This document shows positions 2,264 through 6,888 of a stretch of DNA of 6,930 bases, piece by piece. The DNA comes from a virus (Duplodnaviria; Heunggongvirae; Uroviricota; Caudoviricetes), in IMG/VR virus record IMGVR_UViG_2778261572_000009, positions 1-6,930 of that record; one strand, 5' to 3'. The notes under the pieces were generated by a model that saw only the letters and a list, made by a program, of their open reading frames with translations, had not been told where the DNA came from and searched no databases. Both the position numbers and the translations under genes were made by a program. Each line of letters begins with the position of its first letter. Positions within the stretch are counted from its first letter, which is position 1.

Positions 2264-2290
2264 AAAAAAAACCCCCACATCATGTGGGGG
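2264..2290 (-). terminator. Rho-independent terminator candidate upstream of fieF
   Basis: Stem CCCCCAC (2272-2278) / GTGGGGG (2284-2290) with a 5-nt loop. On the plus strand it is preceded by A8 (2264-2271), so on the minus strand it is a GC-rich hairpin followed by U8. Confidence 0.55.
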
Positions 2291-2328
2291 AAGACAGGGA
2301 TGGTGTCACAAAAAAGCACCTAACCTGA

Positions 2329-2350
2329 TGATATAAATGGATTTATATCA
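2329..2350. repeat. Perfect AT-rich palindrome (10-bp arms, 2-bp spacer) in the prophage/chromosome junction region
   Basis: TGATATAAAT (2329-2338), GG, ATTTATATCA (2341-2350); the arms are exact reverse complements. Its nature (protein-binding site or recombination-related) is unknown. Confidence 0.4.
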
Positions 2351-2717: not shown

Positions 2718-4178
2718 TCACTCATCATCTTCTGTTTCGTACTCCACATCAGAAAGCCTGACCTCAAGCTCTAAGGACGTCGTGAAGCCGCTATTATTCA
2801 GAAAATGTGTCACCTTAGTGATTGTCCAGTCCTGCTCGTCTATGACGCGCTTAAAGCCTGACACTTTAACCGGTGTTTCCGTGTAAATATCTGCCCGACC
2901 GGTAGCCAGGCTGATGGAAAACTCCGCGACGCCCCGTTGCAGTTTGTCCCACTTCGCCTGAGCGGCGCGCATGGCCTGCGCTTTCGTGGCATATACCGTG
3001 GTCAGTGCAAAAACGTTGTCAGCCTCACCGGCCATGTATTCACCTTCGCGCGCTTCCGGTACTTTAGGCGCTTTCTTCTGCGTGACTGGTTTCGCTTTCG
3101 GGTGCTCCAGTGCGCGCAGGTGTTTCTCTTTCTTTTTGCGTTTCAGTTTTACCTTCTGCTTTTGCGGCTTCGGGTCTTTGGTGTGTAACCACTTTGCCGT
3201 TACGCCGGTATAGGCTCCACGGTCAGCAATCGCAAAATGATGACGGTCACCGTCGCTGCGGGTGAGGGTAATCTGCGGGATTTTTTTACCGCTGGCAGTC
3301 ACCCCCTGCCCCGCTTTGAGAAACAGCAGTTTTCCCATTTTTACCGACACCTCACCGCCGTTGCGTTCAGCAAGACGGGTCAGGAATTTCGCATCAGACT
3401 CCTGCGACTGGTCGATGTGCGGGATTTTAATTCCGGCCAGTGACGGAGCGACACTGGCTTTCAGCCTGTTACGGGTGGCCACCCCGACATTGGACAGCGT
3501 TTTATGCCAGCCCTGCTCCTGGTCGATTCTGGCACGCAGACCCAGCGCACGGGCGGTGGCATACGCGGTGGCGGTGGTGCTGGTGACCGTATCCCATGCG
3601 AGGAAATCCGGCCAGATGACCATCAGCTCACGCTGGCTGAAATTCTGGCGGTAGGCTTTCACCTCGGAAATGGTCTTACAGCCCCATGCGCTGATATACC
3701 CGAAAGCGCGCAGCTTCTGACAGACGGATACCAGTGCAACAGCCACCTCTTTGGTGTCCAGTCCCGGCACACCGAGAATACGCGGTTTAACACCGGTTAC
3801 CGACTCCGCCGCCAGCAGGGCTTTCAGTCCGGTGTACTGACCGTTTTCGTCGGTGGTGCCGATGATATTGGAAACGGTCTGCGCAAGTTTCGTTTCCTCG
3901 TCGTCGCCGGTGCCGTCTTCCACACGCACGACAACGGTGACCGGTTTTGACTGGTCGGCGATGGCCTGCAACGATGCCGCCAGCGTGCCTTTTTTACCGG
4001 CCTTTGCAATTGCGCTCTGCACATTGGTAATCAGCACTGGTTTATTGAGGGGGAAGATTTCCGCATCCGCATCGCTGGCCGTGCAGACCATGCCAACAAT
4101 GGCGGTGGATACGGTGGAAATGACGCGGGTGCCGTCGTTAATCTCCAGCACCTGCACGCCGTGATGATAGTCACTCAT
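2718..4178 (-). CDS. Chimeric ORF: N-terminal ~233 aa of P2-like tail sheath protein (gpFI) fused in frame to C-terminal ~250 aa of P2-like tail protein D (gpD); deletion remnant, probably non-functional
   Basis: Residues 1-233 (MSDYHHGVQVLEINDGTRVISTVSTAIVGM ... GWHKTLSNVGV) match the N-terminus of P2-family tail sheath proteins from memory. From about residue 234 (ATRNRLKASVAPSLAGIKIPHIDQSQESDAKFLTRLAERNGG ... VRLSDVEYETEDDE) the sequence matches the C-terminal part of P2 gpD. The RBS GGAG (revcomp of 4187-4190) lies 8 nt upstream of the ATG at 4176-4178. The ORF is intact, but the FI C-terminus, FII, E/E', T, U and the D N-terminus expected between these halves are absent. Confidence 0.8.
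   Translation of the reverse strand: MSDYHHGVQVLEINDGTRVISTVSTAIVGMVCTASDADAEIFPLNKPVLITNVQSAIAKAGKKGTLAASLQAIADQSKPVTVVVRVEDGTGDDEETKLAQTVSNIIGTTDENGQYTGLKALLAAESVTGVKPRILGVPGLDTKEVAVALVSVCQKLRAFGYISAWGCKTISEVKAYRQNFSQRELMVIWPDFLAWDTVTSTTATAYATARALGLRARIDQEQGWHKTLSNVGVATRNRLKASVAPSLAGIKIPHIDQSQESDAKFLTRLAERNGGEVSVKMGKLLFLKAGQGVTASGKKIPQITLTRSDGDRHHFAIADRGAYTGVTAKWLHTKDPKPQKQKVKLKRKKKEKHLRALEHPKAKPVTQKKAPKVPEAREGEYMAGEADNVFALTTVYATKAQAMRAAQAKWDKLQRGVAEFSISLATGRADIYTETPVKVSGFKRVIDEQDWTITKVTHFLNNSGFTTSLELEVRLSDVEYETEDDE
3470..3490 (-). other. Deletion junction inside the FI::D fusion ORF (novel joint between sheath and gpD coding sequence)
   Basis: The sheath-like sequence ends at codon 233 (GTG, complement of 3480-3482) and the gpD-like sequence begins at codon 234 (GCC, complement of 3477-3479). 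The exact breakpoint cannot be fixed without the parental sequences. Confidence 0.6.
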
Positions 4179-4270
4179 CCGTTTAACTCCGTGGTTAATG
4201 GGTGCAACTATTTTCTGTTGGGCAGTGCATGAGACGCTATTTGACCTGGCTGGTCAGTGGATGAAACAAC

Positions 4271-4305
4271 AGATAAAGAAAAGGCAGGCAATTCGCCCGC
4301 CTGTC
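4271..4305 (-). terminator. Weak terminator-like hairpin plus T-rich tract between the orphan ORF and the FI::D ORF
   Basis: On the minus strand, GACAGGC-GGGCGAATT-GCCTGCC (revcomp of 4283-4305; 6 of 7 stem positions pair) is followed by TTTTCTTTATCT (revcomp of 4271-4282). Confidence 0.3.
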
Positions 4306-4497
4306 CTGATTTGTACTCACTCATTTTCCGACTGACAATTTACATAGCCAAAACGCTATCAAATCTGACAGTCTGCTTTGAGCGAGGAGCAGAGGTTAGT
4401 TTTAGTTAACCAAAATGATAAAAAGCAGTAGAAAAATCCGCTCATTACGTTATGGTTATAAGCCGCACATAATCATCCGAGCCAAATCCTCTTGATT

Positions 4498-5397: not shown

Positions 5398-5536
5398 TAC
5401 TCCTCCATAAAGATAGGCGCAAGCATTTAGTAATAAACCATTAACATGCCGAGATCATACCCGATCATTGAAATGTAAACACTCCCCTAAGACGGCTGCT
5501 GGCATAATATTTTATGACATCAGCAATGCCCACCTC

Positions 5537-5578
5537 TGGCACAGAGTGGACTGTCAGATTAGGCTTTACTCTGTGCCA
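5537..5578. repeat. 11-bp perfect inverted repeat with 20-nt spacer between gene G and the orphan ORF
   Basis: TGGCACAGAGT (5537-5547) / ACTCTGTGCCA (5568-5578). It lies 35 nt downstream of the G stop and about 140 nt upstream of the orphan ORF start on the minus strand. No adjacent U-tract. Confidence 0.4.
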
Positions 5579-5612
5579 TAGATATGTAAGCCCACACTAG
5601 AGCTCATACAAC

Positions 5613-6140
5613 TTATTGCGGCATTTCCGGCCATTCAGGATTTGCAGGATCCACACGACTGACCAGAACACTATAGCGTTCCCATGCCTCCAGTCGACTA
5701 CGCTCCTCATCTGTTGCCATATTCAGCCTGACCGCGCGCTCCAGCGGCAAAATCACGGATTCAGCTTCGGAAAGCAAAGCTGCCTTATGTAATTCCGCCA
5801 GTTTCTGCTGTTCGTCTGCCGTATAAATCCGCTTAATCACGGCACCATCCTTAAACATCCATTTACCTGAGTCGTCAGCACGTCGGTTGGAGGTAATATC
5901 AGGAACCTCAACAACGCTAAAACCTTCAGGATTAAGCGTTGAAGCATCTCTGGTGATAGCGACAATAATATTATTTTCATCGTAAACAATCTTTATTGTG
6001 TCTGGCTGAAAGTTCTTCACTTCCTCATACCAGTTTTTTCCGTCCTCAGAGTAAAGCCAGATAACTCCGTGTTTCTTTGTTAACTCATACTGTTCCAGTG
6101 TTTTAGCGTTACCCGCTTTTATGTTCTTTAAGTGCATCAT
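5613..6140 (-). CDS. G: Tail fibre assembly protein (P2 gpG-like Tfa chaperone)
   Basis: The 175-aa product begins [23 protein letters not shown]...[20 protein letters not shown]...[34 protein letters not shown], matching the conserved N-terminal domain of P2 gpG tail-fibre assembly proteins. Its start lies 1 nt after the TAA of the upstream tail-fibre ORF, the usual fibre-chaperone coupling. Confidence 0.85.
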
Positions 6141-6141
6141 A

Positions 6142-6888
6142 TTAAACGCTCGCTACATTATACCAGGTGCCATTTATATACTTTTGAACGGGTCTGTAAT
6201 AAACGCCCGCTATATTATCGGCAGAGTTGGACCCTGTATCCTGAACATTAATACCAGACAATACATGACCTGACGGGCACTGGAAATTCCATGTTTGCCA
6301 GTTGTTCACTCCATAATATTGCTGTGACCCAAGTCGAACATCTTTCACATATCTGGAATCAAAATTGCCATAGTTGCCAGGAATAACTTGCGAGCCACAA
6401 AGCCAGTTACCGTTATTATCCATGTACGCCTGACCATCGGTGCCATTGGCTGTCCTTGAGTTATTAATCATGTAGATGCCAAATTGCTTGTTCCCCAGTC
6501 CACCTATCATGAACTTGCGGTCAGCGTGATTCTGGCGAAGCAACGCCTGAGCGCTATCAGTGTTAACTATATTTTTCCCAAAGATAGCGTTGTTATCGCG
6601 CATCTGAATCCACATACCATTACTGCTGTTAATAGCAAAACGGTCTGAAAGCGTCTCCCCTGAAACATTAAGGCCACGCCCCATCGAAACAGCGCCAGTA
6701 GCGTTATTAATCCATAATGGCCTTAATCCGTTATAAGTCCCCATGTTGTCACCGGAGTTTGTCAACATGAAGTATGTATTTGAACCATCATTACGAATAA
6801 AGAATCCGTAATTACCATAAGCAATACGTAGGCCGTTTGCTGATTTTGATATGACTTCGCCATTTACAATGGCATTGCGTATTTTCAT
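6142..6888 (-). CDS. Tail fibre protein, C-terminal receptor-binding module (gpH-like distal part), encoded as a separate 248-aa ORF
   Basis: The translation contains motifs I associate with distal tail-fibre domains ([18 protein letters not shown]...[17 protein letters not shown]) and sits immediately upstream of the cognate assembly gene G. The first ATG (complement 6886-6888) is preceded 4 codons upstream by an in-frame TGA and has only a weak Shine-Dalgarno sequence. Confidence 0.7.

Follow-up and report, generated by a model that had tools for sequence, protein, structure and literature searches.

The minus strand of the window, i.e., the whole 6,930-nt stretch of the virus record IMGVR_UViG_2778261572_000009 that was analysed, covers the right-hand end of a P2-like prophage and the adjoining host DNA (Table 1). 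In this prophage, a cargo gene, orf44, is located between the tail-fibre assembly gene G and an open reading frame (ORF) that opens with the sheath protein FI. The orf44 stop codon and the FI start codon (4178-4176) are separated by 319 nt, the distance given in a preliminary description of this DNA and confirmed here, and this spacer (positions 4179-4497) is the subject of the present analysis. Although flagged in that description, the spacer is ordinary and fully accounted for. It is very probably a mosaic that consists of the tail of orf44, one end of a transposon together with a copy of the duplicated target, an operon terminator and the late promoter pF, with none of these parts being a separate gene product. 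Both the anatomy of the spacer and its homology to annotated features of phage P2 are directly apparent from the comparisons described below.

The spacer was initially considered unusually long. However, 319 nt is typical of cargo-bearing P2-like phages: the fun(Z)-FI gap in phage P2 is 390 bp, and, in some 40 P2-like loci with cargo, the distance from the end of the last cargo ORF to the FI ATG ranges from 244 to 602 nt. A short gap between G and FI, 128 nt, is seen in cargo-less relatives only. The suggestion that the spacer contains no credible ORF was borne out, the ORFs on its minus strand consisting of 38, 28 and 27 codons, with no others. The 38-codon ORF (4208-4324) was considered as a potential small protein and rejected; it is not preceded by a Shine-Dalgarno sequence and crosses both the terminator and the activator site. 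Together with its flanks, the spacer is 100% identical to one record denoted "Peduovirus P2" and 99.6% identical to phage Wphi. In a megablast search against 5,426 complete Escherichia coli genomes, the FI-proximal ~215 nt of the spacer are matched in 1,025 genomes, whereas the distal ~100 nt are found in only 117 of these, all of which encompass orf44. Among 80 P2-like loci gathered by the FI N-terminus, homology to the spacer ends at about 4385-4404 in ~50 distinct sequences; four others lose it at 4302-4304, and 17 that bear another upstream gene lose it at 4269. These break points separate a segment specific to the cargo (4497-4399) from one that is shared among the loci (4398-4179).

Apart from the 117 E. 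coli genomes, the cargo-specific tail was detected only in Wphi and a few other records, all carrying orf44. It has no match in Rfam, and the sole promoter-like match in the spacer (4501-4472) occurs at chance rate in a sigma-70 scan. The product of orf44 itself has no match in Pfam or PADLOC, and all the occurrences of exactly this protein that were encountered lie in P2-like prophages, between G and FI. Of the early proposal that the extra length might hold a long 3' untranslated region (UTR), a small RNA or a cargo remnant, what stands is that this is cargo-associated non-coding DNA; it is not a small RNA. The description as a remnant or a 3' tail fits the distal 99 nt only, the rest of the spacer being the right terminal inverted repeat (TIR-R), the terminator and pF.

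Table 1. Positions of the cassette ends, the other parts of the spacer and the surrounding genes in the window (RBS, ribosome-binding site; TIR-L, left terminal inverted repeat)
Feature	Position	Strand	Remarks
TIR-R, "type 2" end	4312-4398	plus	tip TGTA 4312-4315, inward on the plus strand; nhmmer E = 1.5e-24
Right 7-bp target-duplication copy, AATCAGG	4305-4311	minus	
TIR-L, "type 1" end	5524-5610	minus	tip TGTA 5610-5607, inward on the minus strand; nhmmer E = 1.5e-22
Left 7-bp target-duplication copy, AATAAGT	5611-5617	minus	overlaps the G stop codon TAA (5615-5613)
orf44-specific 3' tail, 99 nt	4399-4497	minus	no recognisable element
Intrinsic terminator	4272-4303	minus	stem-loop 4302-4282 and T-tract 4281-4272; terminator scan
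Ogr/activator site of pF	4245-4271	minus	dyad TGT (4268-4266)-N12-CCA (4253-4251)
pF core (predicted)	4205-4215	minus	-10-like GAAAAT 4215-4210, inferred start about 4207-4205; P2 homology
FI RBS and start codon	4176-4190	minus	GGAG 4190-4187, ATG 4178-4176; invariant in 68 distinct P2-like upstream sequences
orf44, 299 aa	4498-5397	minus	gp44 in the phage Wphi annotation
G, tail-fibre assembly	5613-6140	minus	
Tail-fibre H, C-terminal part	6142-6888	minus	
ORF opening with sheath protein FI	2718-4178	minus	sheath domains at the N-terminus
ogr	2418-2699	minus	Pfam Ogr_Delta, E = 2e-21; intact
Host fieF	1280-2200	minus	
Host pfkA	137-1195	minus	

The block between the cargo and the terminator (about 4398-4306) is conserved relative to P2 to a greater extent than pF is, and the same P2-like loci have another conserved block just past the stop codon of G. 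These two blocks are imperfect inverted repeats of each other. A repeat search of the window identifies inverted-repeat arms at 4362-4386 and 5536-5560, and comparison of the consensus left block with the reverse-complemented right one yields a score of 63, as against 21 +/- 4 for shuffled sequences (0 of 2000 shuffles reach 63) and 23 for the direct-orientation control. An nhmmer profile of 97 repeat units matches the window at 4298-4398 and 5624-5524 and matches P2 at both expected positions. Each end is composed of a TGTA tip, two subterminal motifs containing CTGACAG and an inner 8-8-8 palindrome, which is GTCTGCTT-TGAGCGAG-GAGCAGAG in TIR-R and GTCCGCTC-TGTGCCAG-GAGCGGAC in TIR-L. The left inner boundary reads ...AATCTGACA-GTCCGCTC-TGTGCCAG-GAGCGGAC-rTT, and the right one is its counterpart with the spacer TGAGCGAG. 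This boundary is sharp, the same inner end being abutted by about 30 distinct cargo contexts (36 cargo classes), and the cargo genes at the G-FI site of P2-like phages are found in either orientation. The refuting outcome named in the preliminary description, in which the spacer would align with the FI promoter region of related prophages and contain no extra conserved element, does not hold: TIR-R is such an element.

The 7-bp sequences outside the two tips in the window match each other at 5 of the 7 positions, and the empty site in the cargo-less locus L013 reads AATAAAT. All P2-like loci share this junction, which implies one ancestral insertion, with the cargo diversity emerging later. 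TIR-R of the window is 93% identical to the family consensus over the inner 42 nt and 60% identical over the outer 45 nt; the window copy is probably a fossil.

The repeats are by no means limited to P2-like phages. When a degenerate pattern derived from the inner repeat end was searched in species-representative genomes, it was found in 19 stretches, 18 of which contain neither FI nor G nearby. The genera involved include Yersinia, Morganella, Pantoea, Xenorhabdus, Edwardsiella, Citrobacter, Enterobacter, Lelliottia and Yokenella, and the complete ~87-nt unit, from the TGTA tip to ...GCGGACrTT, is conserved across them. A blastn search detects the unit on 79 plasmids as well as in 1,827 of the 5,426 E. 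coli genomes, in contexts that include a tRNA-Leu island beside an integrase (O157:H7), a tRNA-Ser island and chromosomal intergenic sites; in a Qin-like lambdoid prophage, a pair of units brackets a TolA-like accessory gene. The smallest common member (L104 6000-6630 and six similar viral loci, e.g., L118 and L141) is 616 bp long and carries a gene for a 131-aa TolA-C-terminal-like protein; in many E. coli genomes, this element is located in Qin-like lambdoid prophages, beside the genes for lysis. On the Pantoea allii plasmid pB (L098 1845-1910 and 2609-2674), the 24-bp inner palindrome, GTCCGCTn-N8-nAGCGGAC, occurs alone, in back-to-back pairs of both spacer types spaced about 700-900 bp apart, an arrangement that resembles a small cassette array. 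In integrative islands, the unit is found directly downstream of the integrase gene (L103 5996-6088 in the tRNA-Leu island of E. coli O157:H7, and L097 5334-5428). The position just downstream of the integrase is a known defence hotspot in P4-like satellites, and the cassette family may feed this hotspot as well.

The 7 nt that lie just outside the TGTA tips are repeated directly wherever two units are oriented towards each other. Perfect 7-bp duplications that differ in sequence from one insertion to another (e.g., CACTATT, CATAAAT, GCTAACT, ACTGAAT, CTATATC, TATTAGC, AATAATT and TTTCATG) flank at least 26 distinct insertions, 13 of them from the viral and genome loci and 13 from the metagenome loci, the chance of any single 7/7 match being about 6e-5. 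The elements defined in this manner range in size from about 520 bp to 6.7 kb, and each has one type 1 end, with the palindrome spacer TGTGCCAr, and one type 2 end, with the spacer TGAGCGAr. A 6.7-kb element carrying CBASS was found in two copies (L290 6598-13308 and L271 4447-11154) that are 98.7% identical end to end but lie between unrelated flanks at two metagenome sites, with the perfect duplications CATCACC and CTTTATC, respectively. The cargo is a type II CBASS operon (SMODS cyclase, ThiF-type E1/E2, JAB and an HNH-SAVED effector), and the element additionally encodes a Mrr-like nuclease and an exonuclease. This pair indicates that a defence island devoid of its own transposase has transposed recently. 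Insertions at intrinsic terminators were also observed, in the hairpin loop (L088 1582/7838) and in the U-tract (L271 4447), and in the window (4305-4311) as well as in all P2-like loci, the insertion is just 5' of the terminator hairpin; a target preference for intrinsic terminators is possible.

The sample includes 107 distinct cargos with 111 protein clusters. The most frequent Pfam and PADLOC families in the cargo are of the defence type, namely Mrr, HNH, GmrSD, the TIR protein domain and CBASS parts, followed by Shedu SduA, PD-T7-1, PD-T4-2 and candidate PDC systems; transporters and regulators are represented as well. The existence of a repeat family with target duplications and diverse cargo, together with the occurrence of one element at two sites, suggests that the repeats are the ends of a transposase-less transposon family in Enterobacterales, the members of which would be moved in trans, presumably by a DDE-type mechanism. 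No protein that could be a candidate transposase recurs among the 111 clusters from the 107 cargos, no transposase or integrase domain is present among the 25 most frequent of the 70 cargo Pfam families, and no autonomous copy was detected when the largest elements were inspected, the neighbourhoods annotated and the 111 cluster representatives scanned with Pfam and PADLOC. The IS66 transposase gene beside one Pantoea plasmid copy truncated that repeat and is unrelated to it. IS100 (IS21 family) was considered as a source and discarded, its ends not matching the 97-unit profile.

Several other identities of the repeats were considered and abandoned. A dif/Xer-like site inside the left repeat was suggested by cTATGTTAAT-like motifs noticed by eye in a few loci and absent from most cargos. 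Identity to ERIC/IRU repeats was suggested by no more than two 10-11-nt resemblances and was not supported. A cargo-facing promoter within the repeats, discerned by eye, has poor hexamers with a 19-nt spacing and no match in the scan.

Among the alternatives to transposition, the least improbable is that the inverted repeats are targets of a site-specific tyrosine or serine recombinase that swaps cassettes at the inner palindrome. The inner ends resemble recombination cores, with arms of 8-11 bp around an 8-bp spacer that consistently differs between the left and right ends; the cargo boundary is sharp just past the palindrome in 36 cargo classes; the palindrome forms back-to-back arrays on its own in the Pantoea plasmid; two unit copies adjoin integrase genes; and this is the reading reported for Nilsson et al. 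2004 in a later article (PMC8987985). We nevertheless consider this explanation unlikely. The flanking 7-mers are duplicated and differ by insertion, which is the signature of transposition with staggered cuts rather than of recombination at a fixed core. Furthermore, no recombinase gene is consistently found nearby, the neighbour genes being heterogeneous, and conservation across genera extends beyond the palindrome to the whole ~87-nt unit with its TGTA tip. The two mechanisms could also be compatible: an element placed by transposition could have its cargo swapped through recombination that occurs at the repeats or inside them.

The conserved block ends at an intrinsic terminator, which is located directly upstream of the pF activator site. 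What had been noticed at this position as a weak hairpin plus T-tract on the minus strand is indeed present and is most likely a terminator, but the hairpin is not weak, with a folding free energy (dG) of -17.9 kcal/mol and z = -3.4 compared with shuffled sequences; its tail is TTTCTTTATC. The terminator was found in 30 sequence variants; the stem is retained, in 19 variants, with one compensatory change from G-C to A-U. The variant in L020, some 118 nt before the FI ATG, has the stem GACGGGC...GCCCGTC in place of GGCGGGC...GCCCGCC, a compensatory double change that argues for selection on the hairpin. The terminator begins about 10 nt past the G stop codon in four loci that lack cargo (L013, L025, L044 and L051). 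We read this hairpin as the likely original terminator of the V-W-J-I-H-G operon, which in the window would also end the orf44 transcripts.

The exact junction of the conserved ~90-nt block with the terminator might be taken to indicate that the two together are a small RNA or a conserved regulatory 3' UTR that is transcribed in the same direction as FI and terminates at the hairpin. The higher conservation of the block relative to P2, compared with the adjacent promoter, is compatible with this possibility, and for sense-oriented cargo such as orf44, the block is inevitably included in the 3' end of the mRNA. Other observations point in a different direction and render an RNA function improbable. 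A scan of the whole window reveals no Rfam match in the spacer at E <= 1, and neither strand shows a sigma-70-like promoter within the block or at its edge. The unit recurs, inverted, on the other side of the cargo, without a terminator there, is found in both orientations with respect to neighbour genes in many genomes, and forms pairs flanked by 7-bp target duplications. Pairing within the palindrome does not exceed the expectation, with 504 of 608 cells paired in 76 distinct units compared with 506 +/- 4 in arm-shuffled units. An RNA or single-stranded DNA hairpin in the inner palindrome had been suggested by an apparent compensatory change in the left copy of the window, but this change is not general and there is no covariation. 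Given the lack of covariation, of an Rfam match and of a promoter, and the occurrence in both orientations, we read the block as a probable protein-binding DNA end and reject the small RNA.

The shared part of the spacer closest to FI contains, as was expected from the preliminary description, the late promoter of the sheath gene: pF was located by alignment to the annotated activator and start sites of P2. In the P2 record, the pF activator binding site is annotated at 17555-17583, the start of the F operon at 17626-17628 and the FI ATG at 17652, and these align, respectively, with window positions 4271-4245, about 4207-4205 and 4178; the aligned segments, 4271-4179 in the window and 17555-17651 in P2, take in the activator site, the start site and the FI ATG. 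The consensus of four Ogr-dependent late promoters is TGT-N12-ACA, and in P2, PV drives VWJIHG whereas PF drives FI-FII-E-E'-T-U-D (PMC3931495). The consensus dyad had not been found in the spacer by eye, and there is indeed no exact copy. This is no anomaly, however: the annotated pF activator site of P2, GGTGGTTGTGCTGTCGATTAGCCAACCGG, is itself TGT-N12-CCA, so that the exact consensus is not required for pF, and the window site, TGTTGTTTCATCCACTGACCAGCCAGG, is likewise TGT-N12-CCA (4268-4251) and aligns to that of P2 base for base. Copies of TGT-N12-ACA with one mismatch occur at chance frequency (31 observed against 35 expected), and hence the motif alone proves nothing; the assignment of pF depends on positional homology to P2, with the likely start placed by alignment. 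The centre of the activator dyad is about 53-54 nt upstream of this start, and the -10-like hexamer is nearly invariant across P2-like loci. The cognate zinc-finger activator, ogr, is intact and encoded by the same prophage, and pF may well be active in this strain. In 17 P2-like loci (L011, L017, L019, L029 and 13 others), the repeats and the terminator are missing, and a ~199-aa ORF at -659 to -60 relative to the FI ATG, ending 60 nt before it, is found instead; the pF activator site of these loci is yet another allele, the third. Judged by eye, the C-terminus of the ~199-aa product may resemble a DNA invertase of the Hin/Gin type.

The notion that the extra sequence is a neutral, decaying cargo remnant kept by recent ancestry and hitch-hiking with FI, to which the restriction of the distal 99 nt to orf44, the 60% identity of the outer half of TIR-R to the consensus, the degenerate duplication and the many small remnants reported in P2/P4 hotspots (PMC13586616) lend some appeal, is highly improbable in view of the constant inner boundary of the block beside 36 unrelated cargo classes in either orientation and of the presence of the family in many genera, plasmids and other phage types, with intact duplications and recent transposition.

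Under the transposon interpretation, the history of the locus could be as follows. The element would have inserted once into an AATAAAT 7-mer that overlaps the G stop codon, and everything between TIR-L (5610-5524) and TIR-R (4398-4312) would be cargo. The TIRs would act at the DNA level as transposon ends, presumably bound by a transposase supplied in trans. The terminator that originally followed G would halt late (P_V) and cargo transcription before the next operon, where the Ogr-dependent pF (activator site 4271-4245, start about 4206) would drive FI, here as part of an FI::D fusion. The P2-like cassette would be an old, immobilised copy in which the outer half has decayed and the duplication has degenerated, whereas the cargo would have been swapped many times, most likely through recombination within the repeats with other family members. 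The divergence of the inner and outer halves of the repeat fits such an immobilised resident element, with its cargo probably replaced by recombination within the repeats with incoming members of the family.

Some observations weigh against this interpretation. Mobility in trans is deduced from the duplications and from one element at two sites, with no transposase found, and a lone transposase-bearing element could have been missed when the 25 most frequent of the 70 Pfam families were viewed. In the window itself, the two copies of the duplication agree at only 5/7 positions and TIR-R is just 60% identical to the consensus over its outer 45 nt; the conservation of the inner half could reflect another function. 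The pF start and the terminator were assigned from homology and folding. Finally, divergence between cargo classes in P2-like loci is 15.9% in the inner half of the repeat, 9.7% in the outer half and 19.9% in the downstream region, but this comparison, as a test of cargo swapping by recombination within the repeats, is confounded by the overall relatedness of the phages.

The prophage that harbours the cassette is defective. The "sheath" ORF is an in-frame FI::D fusion: its N-terminal part comes from FI, with sheath domains at aa 26-237, and its C-terminal part comes from gpD, with Phage_GPD at aa 234-463, which implies that FII, E, T and U are deleted. The same FI::D remnant is found beside ogr, fieF and pfkA in several E. 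coli assemblies (L108, L114 and L116). At the ogr-fieF junction (2264-2330, plus strand), there is a weak match to the Rfam family of the small RNA Hrs1 (31.8 bits against a gathering threshold of 56.4; E = 0.003), which is probably due to chance.

The interest of the spacer lies in the cassette family to which its conserved block belongs, i.e., in how defence and accessory genes reach phage hotspots. We tentatively propose, while rating this somewhat below an even chance, that the G-FI cargo lies inside a fossil member of a still-active, transposase-less family that ferries defence and accessory genes and that is perhaps undescribed beyond a note of 2004. Inverted repeats that flank fun in phage and bacterial genomes were described by Nilsson et al. 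2004, as cited by Benler and Koonin (PMC8987985), where they are reported to enable site-specific recombination. As far as this citation allows one to judge, the repeats at the P2-like Z/fun locus in that study are almost certainly the same as those analysed here. Relative to the 2004 report as it is relayed there, the 7-bp duplications, the two end types, the TGTA tip, the 107 cargos and the occurrence in lambdoid prophages, islands and plasmids point to transposition. Thus, the existence of the repeats is already in the literature, and what is added here is their membership in a transposase-less transposon family of Enterobacterales. A full-text literature search for the repeat sequence returned nothing relevant, and the cassette family may be under-described. 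According to a 2026 survey, transposable elements are almost nonexistent in P2/P4 hotspots, and the route of exchange with other mobile elements was left open (PMC13586616). A family without a transposase would be invisible to gene-based transposon finders and would fill this gap. If the proposal is correct, the family carries CBASS, Shedu-like, Mrr-STAND, GmrSD, TIR-domain and other systems among chromosomes, plasmids, islands with an integrase and prophages of both the P2-like and the lambdoid type, the repeats serve as portable homology arms for cargo swaps among unrelated mobile elements, and such swaps would explain the exchanges that the survey could not attribute to transposable elements. 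In practical terms, candidate defence genes can be collected by searching with the repeat profile, the inner boundaries marking the exact limits of the cargo.

One of the closest known systems is the fun(Z)-FI region of P2 itself (NC_001895 17262-17651), which, like the spacer, separates the cargo from FI. Over the proximal ~220 nt, the two regions are homologous and share the activator site, the start site, the RBS and the FI start. P2 carries both repeats as well (15264-15361 and 17428-17526). It differs in that fun(Z) is antisense whereas orf44 is in the sense orientation, in that the pF activator-site alleles of the two phages differ at about 30% of the positions, and in that the V-operon terminator annotated in the P2 record is a different hairpin, internal to the cargo.

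Beyond P2-like phages, the cassettes are reminiscent of integron attC cassettes, in which self-contained or promoter-less passenger genes likewise lie between imperfect palindromes, including in arrays comparable to that on the Pantoea plasmid. Unlike integrons, however, the family described here has no attC signature and no adjacent integron integrase, and instead has inverted pairs of repeats and target duplications. MIC231 of Bacillus cereus is a mobile insertion cassette whose cognate transposase comes from IS231. MIC231 and cargo-carrying elements similar to miniature inverted-repeat transposable elements share with our family terminal inverted repeats and target duplications around passenger genes, with no internal transposase; MIC231 differs in its repeat sequences and host range, and the repeats here are about 87 bp long and of two end types. 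Mu and Tn7 make 5-bp duplications, and Tn552 has ~116-bp repeats and 6-7-bp duplications. The ends described here may resemble those of DDE transposons of the Mu, Tn7 and Tn552 type in having a TG(T) tip, considerable length, repeated subterminal motifs and distinct left and right forms. No gene similar to TnsB or MuA was detected within or beside any of the elements. As in Tn7-like elements, defence genes are a frequent cargo of this family.

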